A stretch of DNA of 64,000 nt from Mayamaea pseudoterrestris (lineage: Eukaryota), in assembly GCA_027923505.1 (NCBI GenBank), contig BROI01000003.1, positions 1,426,001-1,490,000 on the forward strand. Direction: 5' to 3'. Position numbers and translations under genes: made by a program. Positions within the stretch are counted from its first letter, which is position 1. The number at the start of each line of letters is the position of its first letter. The notes beneath the pieces are model-generated. The model saw only the letters and a list, made by a program, of their open reading frames with translations. It made no database searches and had not been told where the DNA came from. Below are positions 37,397 through 44,267 of this stretch, one piece after another.

Positions 37397-38839
37397 ATGC
37401 GACAAAATTCTTTTACCGATTCACAGACAACCACAACCCCTCGCAATCCGCAGCTGCCTGTTACCTCGAGTCGTCGGCGAGACCAATCGAAACGTTTTTT
37501 CACATTCGTCGCTGCATTTGCAGCAATGATTCTCTTTCCAGCTTTTAGGCAGCAGCTCGACTATGCAACGTTTTACTGCCGTTCAACCATGGAATTGCTC
37601 ATTGACTATCCTCTGCCTCTAACGTCTCTGCATCATGTGCACGATCCATCGGCAAGAGAACTACCTTTAAATAGTAGTTTGCGAAAAAGGCCGCGACTTG
37701 ATCGCTCCACCTTCTTTCATACTGGAGCATCCGAGGAAGACATTCGCAAGTTTTTCCATTGGGATCCGTCGTCCATTCTCGACGAAACGATGACATCAAG
37801 CAGCAATACCAAGTTACTCGTCGAGCCTATGTGGAGCTGCCACAATCCTGACTCAAGATCCACAAGACTTATATTTCATCACATGCCCAAGTCAGGCGGC
37901 CTGACCTATCGAGCGTTACTAAAGGCATACAGTTTGCTCTGCAACGCTTCCATTGCCTTGGTGTCGCACTGTACCTTTCTTGGTCGCGAGTACATGGACG
38001 GGAGCGACAATGCAACGCACTGGCGCAACGGAATACGTACGCGAGACGCGTCAAAAAATTGTGTATTGTCAAATGCACTTGACCGAACTGGACAAGTTTT
38101 GACGAACGACTTGCGCATGAGTACAAGCTTGCTAAACGAGCATCAGTTTGACATTCTCGCTGGACACTTGCCGTTGGGAAGCGATGAGTTCTGGAAGGAC
38201 TCTAATACTGGCAAACATGTCAATGCTCGGAGCCTCGTCTTGTTTCGCAACCCGCTGGAAAAGTATGTTTCACAATTTCTGGCGGATCATTGGAGTACGG
38301 GCATTGGTAATAGTTCAATCGATGAAGTTGTCGCATTCATGGCTGCAAATGTTCAGAATCGTACCAGTCGAAACGAATATTATGAACTATACTCTCGCAC
38401 CTTGATTCGACCAGAGCAACGAACCTGGATTGATTTGGAGCACGTACAGTGGACGCCCGAGCATAGACTAAATCTGACGCTGCGAAACCTTGTGGAATCA
38501 AAGACAGTTGTGGGGATTATGGAGCGAGTCGAATCAAGCATTGAATTGGTCCGATACTTGCTAGACAAGAACCACGAGATTCCGCACATGGCCTTTTCCT
38601 ACTTTTCGTCCAACAAGCTTTCCAATAAGATTGCTTTGCTGCATGGTGCTAGCAGCAATCGCACAAAGGACATTGTCGCAAGAATTGAACAGAATTCACG
38701 CATTCTGGCAGTCTTTAACGAGTTTTTGAAATACGAGCAAGCAGCCTACGACTGGGCCGTGCGTATCCATGAGCGACAAGTGAGAATAATGCAGCAGTCG
38801 TATCTGGCCCGCAACATGAGCAGCGTTCTACCAGCGTAG
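37397..38839 (+). CDS. Golgi type-II membrane sulfotransferase-like protein
   Basis: Single N-terminal TM; 5'-PSB FHHMPKSGGLT; 3'-PB LFRNPLEKYVSQF; start uncertain (ORF is open from 37244). Confidence 0.75.
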   Translation: MRQNSFTDSQTTTTPRNPQLPVTSSRRRDQSKRFFTFVAAFAAMILFPAFRQQLDYATFYCRSTMELLIDYPLPLTSLHHVHDPSARELPLNSSLRKRPRLDRSTFFHTGASEEDIRKFFHWDPSSILDETMTSSSNTKLLVEPMWSCHNPDSRSTRLIFHHMPKSGGLTYRALLKAYSLLCNASIALVSHCTFLGREYMDGSDNATHWRNGIRTRDASKNCVLSNALDRTGQVLTNDLRMSTSLLNEHQFDILAGHLPLGSDEFWKDSNTGKHVNARSLVLFRNPLEKYVSQFLADHWSTGIGNSSIDEVVAFMAANVQNRTSRNEYYELYSRTLIRPEQRTWIDLEHVQWTPEHRLNLTLRNLVESKTVVGIMERVESSIELVRYLLDKNHEIPHMAFSYFSSNKLSNKIALLHGASSNRTKDIVARIEQNSRILAVFNEFLKYEQAAYDWAVRIHERQVRIMQQSYLARNMSSVLPA

Positions 38840-39174
38840 AAGGCGTTCGGTAATCTCACTTCGCTTATAATACTGTACTTGTACTTTGTAGACAAAACAC
38901 GTTCCTTTATTTACCGTAATCATTTACCGCCGGTGTCAATTAAGCATACCAGTACATGAAACGGAAGTTAGGCTGATTTTTCCGTCACTTTAGCTCACTT
39001 ACTGTCAATGAAGGCATAGCCTTGCGATTAACGAGTAGCGCACGTCGTACCGGGTATCTTTGGTTGTGGTGCGACACGACACACGTTGAACCGCGATCAC
39101 CATGGGATGCGAGATTTCGTAAAATCGACACAAAGTCGCTGCCATAATCATCAAAAACAGTAATACAAGTCACC

Positions 39175-40428
39175 ATGTTACGACTCCTTCCCTCGATATT
39201 GATATCCCTTTGTTGTAGCGCAGCGGCAGCATTTAGTGTGTCGTCGATATCGACAAGGTCACATCAGCTGCAGCAACATTCGTTCCAACTCTTTGCCTCA
39301 AACGATGGGACTGACAAACGAAAACGACGTCGTCGAAAGCAATCATCAACTACAGCGCCGCCTACACCGGATCCAGTCAAAACGTCGCTGCCTGAAATGG
39401 AGGGTATTGATGATCCGCTAGATGAAGATCTGACAGAAGACGACATTTTGGAGCTTGCCAAGGTCGCAAAGTTTGAGTTTCGGCCAAGGACATCTGGCGA
39501 AGCAATTTCCATGCCAAGTAAGTGCATTCCTGGTTAATCATTATTTGTAGTCGTCAACGTAGCGTCTTGCTCGGTCGCTAATCGAATCGTTTTCGCTATC
39601 TGTGTTTACAGATGTGGATGTGAGGGATTTATCCAAGTCGTCAGAGGCTGCAGCGCCCATCGGCTCAGAAGGTGCCATTCCATTGCCCGATATAAGAGAA
39701 GTGCGGCAGAAGAAGGCCATGCAGGAGGAAATTGATCGAATTGCAGTTGAGGAGTTGGAGACAAGAGTCAGAATCAAGCGCAGCGACACCAAGGCACTTC
39801 GCGATGTATGTAACGCTGCCGTAACCTTCCTGATATGGTATCCAACCTTTGGCTTGAATCTAAACAATACGTTGCTATTCTCTGTTTCTGCAGCTGATTG
39901 AAATGCAACCATTTGCAGACGCGGACGAGTCCTACTTTGAGGAAAAAGCCTATGGCACCGTTAGCGCCTTGCTTGGCGAACGTACCAGGCCGTTTCTTGG
40001 CATTCCTCCAGGACCATTGCAAGTAGGACATTTTGTCGGAGCTCTTGTCATTATGCTCATGGCCTTTGTTCAGTATCCTGGCTTCCCGTTGACTAATTTG
40101 CCTACTCCAGTACGAGATGCGCTACAAGGAGGTTGGTGAAAACGCTGCTTGATCAATATATTTCACGCCAATGAAATGCATCACTAACAATTACTGTCGT
40201 TTATTCAAAAATACAGCACTTGGCCTAGTGTTTGCCATCAACACAGTCCTTGCTGTACAGGCAACGTTCAAGGCTAGTGAACGCGGTCAATCCAAGGTGT
40301 TATGGGCGATAAAAACCTTTTCCGTGGGCGGACTTGCAGTCGACCAACTTTCGTCACTTCCAACGCTGGCAGAAGTGGAGCGCGCCAAGTTGGTCAAGGG
40401 CAAGCGAGCACTCAAGAATAAAAAGTAA
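39175..40428 (+). CDS. Four-exon plastid-targeted hypothetical membrane protein; introns 39518-39611, 39806-39893, 40132-40216
   Basis: AAA-F presequence; three GT-AG introns link four ORF-track fragments in frame. Confidence 0.78.
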
Positions 40429-40438
40429 TAACCAAATG

Positions 40439-41875
40439 TCAGTTTAGTAACTCATATTCATCGTCAGATGCATTGGCCTGATGCTTTTGACGCTGTCGTT
40501 TCCGTGCTCTGGCCTTGGCCTTTTGCTTCTTGTCCGACGCTTTGGAGGCTTTCATTCGCTCCACACTTTGACTGCCGTTTAAATACTCATCCAATTTCAG
40601 GCGTAGACGTTTGCGAGCAAGTTTGCGATTCTGCTGCAGCGAGCGCGTATCTTGGCATTCGACCCGCAGTTGTGTCGCCTTGTGAATCAGGAGAACACGG
40701 TTGGATGTCTTGTTGATCTTTTGTCCTCCGGGCCCTGAACCACGAATAAATGTCTCAATGATATCGTCTTCATTGAGCTCGGGAAGCACAGATGGAGTGC
40801 CTCGTGGTTTAGCCGTCGTGTCTGCTTTGGCAACGTCTGACATGCAGAGCGAAATCTCGGTGAGCAGCACTCGGCGCAAATCGTCATCTGGCAGTAATGC
40901 CACAAACTCTGAGAGCAAGTCGAGGGCGTCCACATCTCCAATAGCAGCACTGCTCGGCGCTGCTTGAATCAAGTTTAATGCAAACGCTGTGTATTTCTCC
41001 GATTCGGCCTTGGTGGAAACGGTGGGATCACCAGCCGCCGACGAGAGAGACAGCGTTCGCTCTTGCAGCTGTTGTAATCCTTGTTGGCCAAGTAGTTGTT
41101 GCAAAATTGCAGATACTTGCTGTTGCTTTCGTTTAGCGCTTTCTTCGGCTGCGACTTGGTCTTGCATCCAATCGTCGTATGATTTTATGACCAAAGCAAT
41201 TCCGCCATTTGCAAATACAAGGTCAATTCGTTGTCGCTTGTCCCAAACAATCCGCTCTCGATACTTAACAGCCATGATTCTATGCTCTGGAATGGCATCG
41301 ATGAGCAAGGTCGCCTTGCCAGAGACGGATTGATTGGGTGCAGAGAATGGAGATTCGACAATGATATCGTCGACTCGATCGAAATGAAGAAAGGAAAAAT
41401 CCGATGGATCCAACGACCACTTGATCCTCCGAATCACCTCCGTCACTGGAACTAGTTTGGGTTTTTCTGCTGGCTGCTGTGAGCCGACGCTCGACATGGT
41501 GGTTTTGAACAAGCGTTGATATGCCGCGTGGTTGACATTCTTGAGCTTTTCAAGTCGTTGCTCCACGCCGCGGAGTCCTCGTCCAACGCGCGCCGCCAGC
41601 TCTGGAAGAGGTAATGTTCGATGTCCCCATAGCTCTTCATCTTGTTCCAAAGACCATTCTCGGTACAAGTTTTCCATTGGTTGCATTGTCGGCGTAGCCA
41701 ATTCTTTGTCGTTGTCAAAGGTCGCCATCAGTCGCATGCTGGGTCGAACGACATATCGAAGCTGACACGATCGAGTGCTGCATCGCGACACTGGTCGAAA
41801 GCATCTCACAAATACACTCGATGCTCCATGCAACATGATCCAGATCATGCCTTGTCGCCAAGATGGACGCACCAT
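40439..41875 (-). CDS. Fusion: Myb/HTH-like segment + MJ1316-like domain + class-I release-factor GGQ domain (C12orf65/ArfB-like)
   Basis: PVTEVIRRIKW..DF..HFDR..IPEHRI..YRERIVWDKRQRID (about 41455-41210); ETFIRGSGPGGQKINKTSNRV..CQDTRSLQQNRKLARKRL (GGQ 40721-40729) followed by a basic tail. Confidence 0.82.
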   Translation of the reverse strand: MVRPSWRQGMIWIMLHGASSVFVRCFRPVSRCSTRSCQLRYVVRPSMRLMATFDNDKELATPTMQPMENLYREWSLEQDEELWGHRTLPLPELAARVGRGLRGVEQRLEKLKNVNHAAYQRLFKTTMSSVGSQQPAEKPKLVPVTEVIRRIKWSLDPSDFSFLHFDRVDDIIVESPFSAPNQSVSGKATLLIDAIPEHRIMAVKYRERIVWDKRQRIDLVFANGGIALVIKSYDDWMQDQVAAEESAKRKQQQVSAILQQLLGQQGLQQLQERTLSLSSAAGDPTVSTKAESEKYTAFALNLIQAAPSSAAIGDVDALDLLSEFVALLPDDDLRRVLLTEISLCMSDVAKADTTAKPRGTPSVLPELNEDDIIETFIRGSGPGGQKINKTSNRVLLIHKATQLRVECQDTRSLQQNRKLARKRLRLKLDEYLNGSQSVERMKASKASDKKQKAKARARKRQRQKHQANASDDEYELLN

Positions 41876-42250
41876 CGCGGTCGACTAATGGCAGTGATGA
41901 ATGAGCGTGACGTGAAAATGCTGCACAAAATGTTGTCGCACCGGTCAAATTACTGTCGGAGCGGTGTCAAAGAGCTCTCATTGTGTGATTGGCATTGCAC
42001 TAGGCAAATGAGGGCATTGGAATGACCTTGGTGCTGAAAGACTATCAAATTGATTAGGTAGATAAGTTGACTGGCTGGTGTCTCCATGGACTGCAACGTG
42101 ATTGGTGACAAGTTGTCACCAGTCTCAGCCAGCAGCTGCTGCCTCTTAAATGCCCATGCCTCGAGCCATGTGTATTTGGCAAGAGTGGTACTATAGCTGC
42201 CTGCAAGATAGTCTCATAGGCAAAATATTACTACAAATAGCTCTATTGAA

Positions 42251-42871
42251 CTACAATGAATTAAAGTCCATGATTTCATGTAGCCCAGGCATTTGCCGTA
42301 GCTGACTTGGTGCGTTTCCTTCGTCGCTTCCATCTGCGCAATCTTCTATTCCGTCACCCACCCGCGAGGCAAATACATGGCCAGATCCGTCGGCGCATGG
42401 AAATGTCTTTTGTTGTACTAATAGGTGGCTGCATGCCGACGTCATAGGTTCATCACTGCCATCCGAGCAATCGCAATAGTTGTCATTCAAATGTCCTTTG
42501 GCGCCATTTGGACAAGTCACCATCTTCTTCGACAATAATAGCTGCTTCTCTTTGGCAATTTTGGCAATTTGCTTCAACGGCTGTATGACTTTTTGCTTGT
42601 GCTTGTTGGCAAAGTCTGTCACCTTTCGTCGATGATGTGACAAGCGGGTCTTGTGCCTCTCCAAGTGTTCCGCAGGTACGAATTGAACAATTGACAAGCC
42701 AGTCATACCAAGAATAACCATACAAAACATGCAATTTTTAAGTGTTTGCTTTAAATTGTATCGTCGTCGATGCTTGCGATGGCCTTGTTTTTGCAATTGA
42801 CTCAAATCCGAGGAGTGATGCGGAAGGATGGGATCGCTGGCTCCCTTGCGTTTTCGAACGGAGCTGATCAT
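42251..42871 (-). CDS. Type-II membrane protein with glucosidase II beta (PRKCSH)-like LDLa domain only
   Basis: TM then [21 protein letters not shown] and [18 protein letters not shown]. Confidence 0.78.
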
Positions 42872-43495
42872 GGCTATCAATTGATACAATCGTAGGCTAT
42901 GTATCGTTGGTGAGGAAAAGGCAGCACGCGAAGAATGTTTGGTGGCTTGAAAGCGACGACGATCGATGGAAGGCGGACGCCAAGAAAAAAAAATGTGCGA
43001 GTTGTCAAGAATGTAAAGCGAAGATGAAAAGACATCGACAAGAAACGAGCGTTTGATCGATCTTTCATTCTTATTCGCATGCATCTGGACCGTGAATCTT
43101 GGTTGACAATCAATGGACAAGCAGCTGCTTTCGAATGGTAACCAATAATAGCATAATGGAGAATCAGAGGATCAATGGTTTGAGTGTCTTCAGAAATGAT
43201 TTAACTTTTGAATTATTAATACCGGCTTTCCGTCTCATGTGCATGAAGATGAGGCGCACAATAGTTAGGCTTAACACATCTGGTAGTTCCAAATAATCGC
43301 TGTACCAGCGTAATGAGTAGCGGGTACAACTACTCCTATGTAAATGAATTTCATTATAAGGTTTCCTTATGTAGATAGCTACCATAAATCACGACCAAGG
43401 CACTCGCATTTGGTCCAAATACTATCTTCCAGCAATTTGCACCATGACGAGCACTACCAATACTCTCAAGGGCCCATTAACTGCAATCAAGTGTG

Positions 43496-43530
43496 ATCAA
43501 GCAAAAGCTCAAAAGAGCTGATGCCGTCAT
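43496..43530 (-). promoter_or_regulatory. Candidate non-canonical SECIS element in the GPX 3' UTR
   Basis: AUGAC-GGCA-UC-AGCUC-UUUU-GAGCU-UU-UGCU-UGAU gives a UGA/GA core and an 11-position helix II but no apical AA. Confidence 0.35.
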
Positions 43531-43582
43531 TCCATGAACCAAACGGTCGCGCCATTTTGTGGTTATTTGACGCGGCAAGCTT

Positions 43583-44267
43583 CTACGCCGAAGATGTATC
43601 GTCCCTCTTCTTCTGCATCAACTCCTCAATGTTCTTGCGCATGTCGAACGGAGGAGTCAACGTTCCAAATCGGCTATGAGGATTACCCTTGTGATCGATC
43701 AAGAATTTGGCTGCAAAGACGGTAATTGGTGTAAGGGAATGAACGATGGAATCTTTCGTCGCACATGTGCGCTGCGTGCTCATGCCACTTACTGAAATTC
43801 CAGCGAACATCCGCCGTTCCGTCCTCGGCCAGCAAGGCTTGCTTCAGAAAGCTGAAGACTTCTCTCGCGTCCGCTCCGTTCACGTCCCTCTTTTCGAAAA
43901 AGGTCAACCTGTCAAGCATCTTTTCGTCATATTTTTTGACAAACTCCATAATCGTTTTGGGCGAACCAGGCTCTTGTCCTCCAAACTGATTGCATGGAAA
44001 TGCAAGTACCTTGAGTCCAGGATAGTCATCGACAAGTTTTGGTAGTTGTTGGTAGTTCTCCTTGGTCTTGCCTCATTTGCTGGCAACATTGACAACGACG
44101 ACAACGTTTCCCTCAAAGTCTGACATTTTGACCTCCTCATTGGTGCCGAGGGCGCGGTCGACGCAGGCGTAAAAGCTCGTCTTGTCAGTGGCCTTCTCAG
44201 CTCCATATAAGACGCGAGTTGTTGTGTCCTGGACGGCACCAAAGGCGCGGGTGAGAAGGTTGGTCAT
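43583..44267 (-). CDS. GPX: Selenocysteine glutathione peroxidase (UGA=Sec at 44075-44073); intron 43711-43792
   Basis: VVNVASK-TGA-GKTKENY reads on in frame into LAFPCNQFGGQEPG; splice gives VRWNFTKFLID. Confidence 0.92.

Follow-up and report, generated by a model that had tools for sequence, protein, structure and literature searches.

The window analyzed here, a 64,000-nucleotide stretch of a Mayamaea pseudoterrestris contig (BROI01000003.1, positions 1,426,001 to 1,490,000; assembly GCA_027923505.1), contains an open reading frame (ORF) that joins an MJ1316 domain to a GGQ domain. The locus raises the question of whether one polypeptide senses cleaved RNA and hydrolyzes peptidyl-tRNA in an organelle. 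We found four domains in one polypeptide, namely, a Myb-like helix-turn-helix (HTH) domain, an MJ1316 domain, a PAH/harmonin-homology domain (PAH/HHD)-like helical bundle, and a GGQ domain. The coupling of the two activities in an organelle, which we infer throughout, is plausible. The features are as follows.

40439..41875, minus strand: whole ORF, 478 aa plus stop codon; stop-free, apparently intronless
41678..41875, minus strand: variable N-terminal extension, putative organelle presequence, aa 1 to 66; disordered in the AF2 model (pLDDT, <50)
41489..41677, minus strand: Myb/HTH-like three-helix domain, aa 67 to 129; conserved, with fold matches to HTH domains
41237..41449, minus strand: MJ1316 domain (PF04457, UPF0248), Pfam match at aa 143 to 213, conserved block at aa 140 to 231
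40823..41179, minus strand: conserved helical region, aa 233 to 351; in the AF2 model, a long helix (aa 233 to 281) and then a PAH/harmonin-homology-like bundle
40568..40780, minus strand: GGQ peptidyl-tRNA hydrolase domain of the C12orf65/mtRF-R type, aa 366 to 436, by Pfam, sequence, and Foldseek matches
40721..40729, minus strand: GGQ motif, aa 383 to 385; invariant in 120/120 aligned homologues
40445..40564, minus strand: C-terminal basic helix (AF2), aa 438 to 477; 13 K/R and 6 D/E in 40 residues

The gene and its GGQ half

The locus is a nuclear gene, apparently without introns, of a diatom or a close relative. The single stop-free ORF described by a first-pass annotation of this DNA was borne out, and an in-frame TAG sits four codons 5′ of M1. 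We found no joint inside the ORF in four sequencing runs. In run X2, contig 11 spans 40215 to 41447 without a break, from the stop codon to about codon 144 at the start of MJ1316, and a second contig covers 41474 to 41837 of the ORF; the gap in cover between them (41448 to 41473) carries no meaning. GT..AG joints, the mark of spliced forms, are present in a neighboring gene in runs X2 and X3. Because of these joints, both runs behave as RNA derived, with no run recorded as RNA. As for the concern that the two halves might be expressed separately, the RNA-like contig shows no break between the stop codon and the first MJ1316 codons. This contig also merges the convergent neighbor and is therefore weak evidence for a single transcript. 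A tRNA scan and an Rfam scan of 41800 to 42400 were both empty.

We found that Pfam RF-1 (PF00472) matched aa 366 to 468 with 75 bits (gathering score, 35; E = 6e-21) and that the Pfam search of the whole protein returned neither PCRF nor any other codon-recognition domain. In the alignment to human C12orf65, the basic helix behind the GGQ domain falls on that protein's C-terminal region. The architecture read from the sequence earlier, a GGQ domain with a basic tail and no codon-recognition domain, was thus confirmed. The NCBIfam prfA, prfB, prfH, and ArfB models matched the GGQ part only, all far under their cutoffs. The ArfB model (NF006718) scored 40.4 bits against a cutoff of 100, and the PrfH model (TIGR03072) scored 55.7 bits against 166.65, over model positions 102 to 184 only. 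Since the latter score is under its cutoff, we do not class the protein as a PrfH member.

Among solved structures, the best relative was chain 7a5h_C, human C12orf65 as part of a rescue complex on the split mtLSU (E = 2.1e-21 over aa 358 to 464, with one gap). RF1/RF2 (E = 1.6e-9 or weaker), PrfH (E = 2.3e-7), and ICT1 (E = 0.13 to 0.22) were weaker. Foldseek also ranked 7a5h_C first (TM, 0.78; 45% identity), and the PrfH chains 7sa4_8 and 9mor_A matched the GGQ domain only. The named short GGQ-only relatives, among those listed, were animal MTRFR and fungal mitochondrial RF-1 proteins (45 to 60% identity), and the Atlas cluster nearest to the GGQ part was a 159-aa chordate RF-1 family. By its sequence, the GGQ half belongs to the C12orf65/mtRF-R subtype, to which it lies nearer than to ICT1/ArfB, RF1/RF2, or PrfH.

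This assignment bears on mechanism. In the in vitro assays reported in PMC8786322, C12orf65/mtRF-R did not catalyze release on 70S/55S ribosomes, whether programmed or non-stop. According to the accounts in PMC8786322 and PMC9757039, mtRF-R acts with MTRES1 on split large subunits, and MTRES1 is an RNA-binding partner that contacts H69, the P-site tRNA, and mtRF-R; this mode of action has been known since 2020. The first-pass annotation had taken ArfB, ICT1, and C12orf65 together as one mechanism. The stop-codon-independent architecture stands, but the GGQ half is specifically C12orf65-like and C12orf65 showed no release on non-stop complexes. For this reason, one would not expect an ArfB-like non-stop mode by default.

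The N-terminal module and its relatives

We found that the MJ1316 match foreseen at aa 141 to 222 is present at aa 143 to 213 (40.1 bits; gathering score, 26.3; E = 6e-10; model positions 3 to 75 of 75). PF04457 was matched by all 80 members of alignment A4. R150, F160, D166, R167, N181, P196, H198, R199, and W211 are invariant in the domain. More generally, the motifs quoted in the first-pass annotation correspond to invariant or near-invariant columns in 120 homologues (R150; D166-R167; P196-H198-R199; W211; G383-G384-Q385). Over the MJ1316 region, MutH matched below threshold in 10 of 80 alignment members (best E, 4.3e-4), which is only a weak lead toward a MutH/PD-(D/E)xK fold; a profile search of PDB sequences with the sister family listed no MutH chain. 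The VIA-align list for the N-terminal model was filled by the helical bundle, so that the MJ1316 fold was barely probed. Recognition of 2′,3′-cyclic-phosphate ends by MJ1316, as cited in PMC6514570, is a prediction from domain-fusion context. We found no biochemical test of the domain in the literature under the names MJ1316 and UPF0248/DUF504/PF04457.

The segment ahead of MJ1316 had been read as Myb/HTH-like. A conserved three-helix, HTH-like fold was recovered (VIA-align matches to Tc3 transposase at Z = 6.2 and to the GcrA DNA-binding domain at Z = 6.0), with W74, D79, G98-R99-G100, G103, R107, K110, and Y119 invariant. The Myb identity fared less well: Pfam gave no match, Myb included, for the window's aa 67 to 129 segment, and a profile of the sister proteins reached the Myb chain 1h8a_C only weakly (whole-sequence E, 0.0045; stretch i-Evalues, 0.9 and 6.1).

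What had been called a helical linker (aa 233 to 351) is instead a conserved, confidently folded domain, with pLDDT mostly >90. For aa ~246 to 355, harmonin-homology domains made up 6 of the 10 top VIA-align chains at Z scores of 7.2 to 8.3, under the tool's caution level for helical bundles. Foldseek gave a best E of 0.56 for the bundle, and PAH_ZNF598 matched below threshold in sister proteins, in 5 of 80 members (best E, 1.1e-4). Pfam searches of isolated segments returned chance-level matches only (HVO_A0114, E = 0.098; DUF6364, E = 0.17), and a Foldseek search with the N-terminal model returned no match at E ≤ 0.001.

AF2 modeled the whole protein with a pLDDT of 85.3 and a pTM of 0.77 and aa 60 to 355 with 92.5 and 0.83. 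Complex predictions of the N-terminal half (aa 60 to 355) with the C-terminal half (aa 356 to 478) scored 0.00 in both runs, which is no answer and counts neither way. Mean identity between the homologues and the window protein was 79% for the GGQ domain, 60% for MJ1316, 55% for the HTH-like domain, 35% for the helical region, and 16% for the presequence.

The fusion is not confined to this locus. PF00472 and PF04457 are both present in 120/120 listed homologues (the best 120 of 333 matches), and the named ones are diatoms; the concern that relatives might lack the fusion did not materialize. An Atlas cluster of 52 members carries both domains in 100%, with Bacillariophyta as the commonest phylum, and the bolidophyte Triparma retinervis (P0166) has both. 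No stand-alone form from a named diatom appeared among the 120 listed relatives, which is not proof of absence. Short GGQ-only relatives at ≥60% identity lie on contigs of at most ~5 kb or are transcript fragments, and for this reason they cannot show a split gene.

Sister proteins share the N-terminal Myb-like and MJ1316 unit, with F160, D166, R167, N181, P196, H198, R199, and W211 invariant, and differ at the C terminus, where they have no GGQ domain. In P0202, P0242, P0257, P0204, and P0220 (Epipyxis), the unit is followed by an NT5C-like HAD domain (motif DLDGVLADF), and in P0190, P0210, and P0232 only the helical bundle follows; P0198 of the Pavlovales also belongs to this sister group. 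The N-terminal module is a separate evolutionary unit that is also found with another phosphate-handling domain.

Residues 1 to 53 contain 9 K/R, 0 D/E, and 9 S/T, and the extension includes the stretches SSVFVRC/FRP and RLM/AT. At least 30 aa precede the conserved block in 97/120 homologues (the best 120 of 333 matches). Among these 97 extensions, 42 contain an uncharged hydrophobic 8-mer and then a small residue before F, versus 9.9 ± 2.7 (maximum, 17) in 200 shuffles. Because this plastid-type pattern recurs in many homologues, plastid or dual targeting is possible. Two features read as mitochondrial: 30/97 extensions end in R-x-[FLM]-[AS]-[TS], against 10 expected, and an MLSLxR-type N terminus is common among the homologues. 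The signal-peptide-like start noted earlier survives in part; VRC/F is there, but in the window protein it is weak and passes a crude hydrophobicity test at a lowered threshold only. An organelle presequence is plausible, with mixed signals for plastid versus mitochondrion. M67 is kept in 112/120 homologues and 14 gene models begin there, so a presequence-less isoform is possible.

Readings of the fusion

We consider it very likely that the protein is a C12orf65-type organellar rescue hydrolase with an RNA-binding N-terminal module. The explanation that we favor as a whole, and hold to be reasonably probable, is that it is the lineage's C12orf65/mtRF-R-type rescue factor, fused to the three-domain module and acting in RNA-damage-coupled release in an organelle. 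According to this model, the C12orf65/mtRF-R-type enzyme would hydrolyze peptidyl-tRNA without reading a stop codon and would have been joined, in the diatom-bolidophyte lineage, to the C terminus of a preexisting protein with Myb-like HTH, MJ1316, and PAH/HHD-like domains. The fusion protein would be imported into an organelle, with the mitochondrion expected from orthology and plastid or dual import also possible. Its GGQ domain would enter the peptidyl-transferase center of a stalled organellar large subunit with peptidyl-tRNA, as mtRF-R does, and free the nascent chain, while RNA binding by the N-terminal module would choose the substrate. MJ1316 would recognize 2′,3′-cyclic-phosphate ends from endonucleolytic damage, as predicted in PMC6514570, and RNA damage and release would thereby be linked, in analogy to the bacterial PrfH-RtcB pair. 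For this specific trigger, our confidence is tentative and leans toward doubt. The mechanism has to be reread because mtRF-R acts with MTRES1 on split large subunits and not like ArfB. The requirement of mtRF-R for its partner and a split subunit counts against the favored explanation.

In an unlikely alternative, the module would be a built-in partner. As a cis-acting functional replacement for MTRES1/RqcP, it would grip the P-site tRNA or H69 of a split organellar large subunit and set the GGQ domain in position, with no role for cyclic-phosphate ends. The closest characterized homologue works only with an RNA-binding partner, as described in PMC9757039 and PMC8786322. The fusion brings ~290 conserved residues with predicted nucleic-acid-binding and helix-binding folds. 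It also has a long basic helix at its end, and amphipathic helices are the typical binding targets of PAH/HHD bundles. However, no Pfam, fold, or profile search found S4 similarity in the N-terminal module, and the joining of the Myb-like and MJ1316 unit elsewhere to an NT5C-like HAD phosphatase is easier to reconcile with a ligand such as a nucleotide or RNA end than with a clamp on the tRNA body. A broader version, which we rate as quite unlikely, combines both ideas in one-polypeptide organellar ribosome quality control (RQC): the module would replace MTRES1/RqcP and license GGQ release only on large subunits or tRNAs with an endonuclease-made 2′,3′-cyclic-phosphate (or 3′-phosphate) end, and import would extend to the plastid, either by itself or in addition to the mitochondrion. 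This would, if true, be the first example in a plastid of an RQC-type release pathway gated by RNA damage.

An ArfB/ICT1-like non-stop factor is very unlikely. Its basic helix would probe the mRNA channel, left empty in an intact organellar 70S ribosome that has stalled on a cut mRNA, and MJ1316 would read the cyclic-phosphate end of the truncated message. The GGQ domain and basic helix without a codon-recognition domain fit this reading, as does the homology of the C12orf65 and ICT1 tails argued in the relevant part of Duarte et al. 2012 (PMC3472500). Against it stand the ArfB model score, the ICT1 match (E of ~0.1 to 0.2, versus 2e-21 for C12orf65), and the inactivity of C12orf65 on programmed or non-stop ribosomes in the assays of PMC8786322. 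A gene-model or assembly artifact, with two adjoining genes read as one ORF, is a general possibility only, with no run recorded as RNA, and it is effectively refuted. The same four-domain order occurs in 120/120 listed homologues from many assemblies (some entries may be transcriptome derived, from EukProt, e.g., Amphora P0041), and Triparma shares the fusion. The region between the domains is itself conserved and folded, and an unbroken contig crosses the region in a run with spliced forms.

Comparison with known systems

The fusion and the functional proposal that we favor are already in print. Burroughs and Aravind 2019 (IJMS 20:1981, Fig. 4C, PMC6514570) present an MJ1316-C12orf65 fusion whose two Pfam domains and their order match those found here, and, reasoning from PrfH-RtcB as an analogy, they too propose that organellar release activity is tied to RNA damage or repair. 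The part of that text devoted to the fusion gives no organism, experiments, Myb-like domain, PAH/HHD-like bundle, or presequence, and the paper predates the mtRF-R/MTRES1 structure. We found no experimental test of the fusion in the literature. This analysis adds modestly to that account, with two further domains (Myb-like and PAH/HHD-like), the modular architectures of the sister proteins, the occurrence across diatoms and bolidophytes, and targeting signals of mixed character. The protein offers a tractable system for the MJ1316 ligand and for the way in which C12orf65-type factors locate their substrate when MTRES1 is absent. Diatoms such as Phaeodactylum are transformable.

Human C12orf65/mtRF-R (MTRFR; PDB 7A5H chain C) resembles the diatom protein in its GGQ domain (45% identical; TM, 0.78), in lacking a codon-recognition domain, and in the basic C-terminal helix after the GGQ domain. 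In contrast, it is a stand-alone protein of ~166 aa that is recruited to the split mtLSU by a separate S4-domain partner, MTRES1, whereas the diatom protein carries ~300 additional conserved residues at its N terminus and has a putative organellar destination. ArfB/ICT1 also combines a GGQ domain with a basic C-terminal tail and is stop-codon independent; its sequence similarity is far weaker, and ICT1/ArfB act on intact non-stop ribosomes, which C12orf65 does not. Bacterial PrfH-RtcB2 is alike in concept, as a release-factor homologue tied to 2′,3′-cyclic-phosphate RNA ends. PrfH keeps a codon-recognition-like domain and is encoded by a separate gene in an operon with the ligase, whereas the diatom protein includes neither a ligase nor another repair enzyme. 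Should the published prediction hold, RNA-damage sensing would be physically linked to nascent-chain release in an organelle, and the diatom protein would be a eukaryotic single-chain counterpart of bacterial PrfH-RtcB logic.

Domain anatomy and the type of GGQ domain

We found that the gene at 40439-41875 on the minus strand is one ORF of 478 aa, with an in-frame TAG four codons 5' of its first ATG. Pfam detected MJ1316 (PF04457) at aa 143-213 (E 6e-10; 40.1 bits versus a gathering score of 26.3; model positions 3-75 of 75) and RF-1 (PF00472) at aa 366-468 (E 6e-21; 75 bits versus 35). Both matches lie above the gathering score and bear out the MJ1316 and GGQ domains called in the first-pass annotation. 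That annotation had also described the codon-recognition domain as absent; consistently with this, Pfam gave no further domain at E <= 1, and the NCBIfam prfH, prfB, prfA, and ArfB models matched the GGQ part alone, with every score far under its cut-off.

Alignments of 30 and 120 homologues (the latter the best 120 of 333 matches, query included) and two AF2 models (whole protein, pLDDT 85.3, pTM 0.77; aa 60-355, pLDDT 92.5, pTM 0.83) revealed a variable extension followed by four folded parts that are conserved.

Parts of the 478-aa protein, with mean identity of the homologues to the window protein
aa 1-66: putative presequence; 16%
aa 67-129: helical, HTH-like domain; 55%; invariant W74, D79, G98-R99-G100, G103, R107, K110, Y119
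aa 140-231: MJ1316; 60%; invariant R150, F160, D166-R167, N181, P196-H198-R199, W211
aa 233-351: long helix and helical bundle, conserved; 35%
aa 366-436: GGQ domain; 79%; GGQ invariant in 120/120 (best 120 of 333 matches)
aa 438-477: basic helix C-terminal of the GGQ domain; 41%; 13 K/R in 40 residues

By VIA-align, aa 67-129 resembled the HTH domains of Tc3 transposase (Z 6.2) and GcrA (DNA-binding domain, Z 6.0). A sister-protein profile matched Myb chain 1h8a_C with a whole-sequence E of 0.0045, its two stretches having i-Evalues of merely 0.9 and 6.1, and aa 67-129 of the window protein, searched alone, had no Pfam match. A Myb/HTH-like identity is plausible, not proven. The alignments and models also indicate that aa 233-351, previously taken for a helical linker, is a conserved domain. 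Six of its 10 top VIA-align chains were harmonin-homology domains (RTEL1, CCM2 twice, PDZD7, harmonin, and whirlin), at Z 7.2-8.3, which is under the VIA-align caution level for helical bundles. In an alignment of 80 related proteins, we observed sub-threshold Pfam matches to PAH_ZNF598 over this bundle (window aa ~250-350; 5 proteins, best E 1.1e-4) and to MutH over the C-terminal half of MJ1316 (window aa ~170-250; 10 proteins, best E 4.3e-4). ZNF598 is a ribosome-collision sensor, and the PAH match is a curious lead.

The GGQ part had been described as of the ArfB/ICT1/C12orf65 type. The top PDB-sequence match was human C12orf65 within the split mitoribosomal large-subunit rescue complex (7a5h_C; E 2.1e-21, aa 358-464, one gap), followed by the mouse homologue (2rsm_A, 1.5e-17); RF1/RF2 chains reached 1.6e-9 or weaker. 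Foldseek with the full AF2 model also placed 7a5h_C first (target TM 0.78, 45% identity). Of the short relatives listed for the GGQ part, those with names were MTRFR from animals and mitochondrial RF-1 proteins from fungi (45-60% identity), and the nearest Atlas cluster was a chordate RF-1 family of 159 aa. On these sequence and model comparisons, we assign the C-terminal half as a C12orf65/mtRF-R orthologue-type domain, so that the C12orf65 part of the earlier description stands and the ArfB/ICT1 part does not. ArfB/ICT1 was ruled out by the PDB-sequence ranking (ICT1 just 0.13-0.22) and an ArfB model far under cut-off, and PrfH by its chain (2.3e-7 versus 2.1e-21 for C12orf65) and a prfH model far under cut-off.

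One protein from a metagenome cluster of 15 contigs (P0222, 387 aa) carries a C12orf65-like RF-1 domain at aa 58-154 and a C-terminal CYTH domain (E 2.6e-9). CYTH is a triphosphate tunnel domain. By its domain matches, P0222 would be another link of a C12orf65-type GGQ domain to a phosphate- or nucleotide-handling domain.

Spread of the fusion and the evidence for one gene

Among 5.8 billion clustered proteins we found 333 matches, and both Pfam domains were present in 120/120 of the best listed, query included. The four named among these 120 are all diatoms: Fistulifera solaris, Amphora coffeaeformis, Seminavis robusta (annotated "C12orf65 homolog, mitochondrial"), and Nitzschia inconspicua; the closest relative among the matches listed has merely 54-57% identity. 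Exhaustive HMMER over 1.84 billion representatives gave 4369 matches at E <= 1e-3 and 75 at E <= 1e-30, with full-length matches reaching the bolidophyte Triparma retinervis (P0166) and a metagenome cluster (P0175), each with both domains. For the whole protein, the nearest Atlas cluster counts 52 members, 100% of them with both domains, and its commonest phylum is Bacillariophyta. The expectation that relatives share the fusion is thus confirmed, and an artefactual fusion is effectively excluded.

Four sequencing runs from one study (X1-X4), none recorded as RNA, cover the locus, and we compared their contigs over 38500-44000. The neighbouring genes, which are nuclear and unrelated to the fusion gene, are as follows.

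39175-40428 (+): convergent neighbour; introns 39518-39611, 39806-39893, and 40130-40214, GT..AG, from X2/X3 joints
42251-43084 (-): upstream neighbour ORF, 277 aa; PRKCSH-like (glucosidase II beta subunit-like, E 2.3e-10) plus LDL-receptor class A domain

In the plus-strand neighbour, X2 and X3 showed GT..AG joints at three places (39517/39612, 39805/39894, and 40129/40215), and X1 ran unbroken through the latter two introns; by this behaviour X2 and X3 look RNA-derived. None of the four runs had a joint inside the MJ1316-GGQ ORF. X2 contig 11 is unbroken over 40215-41447 (19 mismatches, 20 gap letters), extending past the stop codon at one end and to about codon 144, where MJ1316 begins, at the other; X2 contig 12 covers 41474-41837. 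For the proposed single transcript, contig 11 is weak support, since it takes in the convergent neighbour as well. That the fusion is conserved from assembly to assembly argues more strongly for one gene. The neighbour, which had no Pfam match in the three exon pieces tested, has its stop codon at 40428, 10 nt from that of the MJ1316-GGQ ORF, so the 3' ends of the convergent transcripts probably overlap.

About 120-300 nt upstream of the start codon, at 41996-42179, summed contig depth was ~7e4 in X1 and X4 versus ~30 on both flanks. Loose contig ends lie at 42076-42139 and 12-nt palindromic arms at 42100-42124. Scans of 41800-42400 gave no tRNA or Rfam match there, and the stretch is single copy in the window. 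A dispersed repeat, or sequence common to other abundant DNA, is the probable explanation.

Targeting signals

Residues 1-53 contain 9 K/R, no D/E, and 9 S/T and are disordered in the AF2 model. An extension of at least 30 residues precedes the conserved block in 97/120 homologues (best 120 of 333 matches). In crude pattern counts, not a validated predictor, 59/97 extensions had an uncharged hydrophobic 8-mer, and in 54 it was followed by [AGSCT][FWYL] within 12 residues. F stood at +1 in 42/97; 200 shuffles that kept the composition gave 9.9 +/- 2.7 (maximum 17). In diatoms the bipartite plastid signal is ASAFAP-type, and the hydrophobic stretch with F at +1 resembles it. The window protein (VRC|F), whose start had been called signal-peptide-like, passed the hydrophobic test at a lowered threshold but failed the standard one.

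Against a plastid signal, many homologues begin with an MLSLxR- or MFLLLR-type N-terminus, and 30/97 extensions end in R-x-[FLMYWH]-[ASLFM]-[ATSLK] (10 expected, maximum 18). Together these read as a mitochondrial presequence with its cleavage site, and orthology likewise predicts a mitochondrial location. M67 (window 41675-41677), where the conserved mature part begins, is retained in 112/120 homologues (best 120 of 333). Fourteen gene models start there, and it may serve as an alternative start for an isoform without the presequence.

The N-terminal module and the proposed mechanism

Some proteins from the representative search align over aa ~65-240 alone, and Pfam detects only MJ1316 in them. 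A domain bearing the HAD motif DLDGVLADF comes after the Myb-like+MJ1316 unit in P0202, P0242, P0257, P0204, P0220 (from the chrysophyte Epipyxis), P0201, and P0226; its matches to 5'(3')-deoxyribonucleotidases are weak (6g2n_A, E 0.0056; Pfam NT5C, E 1e-4 in P0204). P0190, P0210, and P0232 combine the unit with the helical bundle but not the GGQ domain, and the haptophyte P0198 (Pavlovales) also has the unit. Because the unit recurs with a HAD-type domain or the bundle alone, the diatom-bolidophyte protein seems to have arisen by joining a GGQ domain to an older marine-algal protein related to RNA or nucleotide ends. Such an origin would fit a phosphate-bearing ligand for MJ1316; it is not proof of one.

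The reading of the fusion in the first-pass annotation is reasonable and partly supported, and its functional part is predicted. An MJ1316-C12orf65 fusion with this inference appears in passages of Burroughs & Aravind 2019 (PMC6514570), so the fusion is already known as a computational prediction. To it we make modest additions: the four-domain layout, the sister proteins with their modular architectures, the diatom and bolidophyte spread, and the mixed targeting signals. Searches for MJ1316, UPF0248/DUF504/PF04457, and the Pfam name uncovered no experimental work on this domain. Those for C12orf65 with diatoms found Duarte et al. 2012 alone, the available passages of which do not mention the fusion.

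The published reading needs an update to the mtRF-R mechanism. According to passages of PMC8786322 and PMC9757039, C12orf65, renamed mtRF-R after 2019, is inactive in release on 70S or 55S complexes in vitro. Together with MTRES1, a protein with an S4 domain, it acts on split large subunits with peptidyl-tRNA; the abstract of a 2025 preprint names start-codon-stalled mitoribosomes as major substrates. By analogy, we propose that a C12orf65-type hydrolase would be imported into an organelle, where its GGQ domain would free the nascent chain from a stalled large subunit and the N-module (the HTH-like and MJ1316 domains with the bundle) would pick the substrate through RNA binding. That a cyclic phosphate is the trigger, as predicted in print, is possible, and we hold it tentatively. 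An ArfB-like non-stop mode, which a GGQ domain with a basic tail might suggest, is less likely because the family assignment is C12orf65-type. The main rival to substrate choice by RNA end has the N-module taking the place of MTRES1 within the one polypeptide; in the same two sources, MTRES1 touches H69, the P-site tRNA, and mtRF-R.
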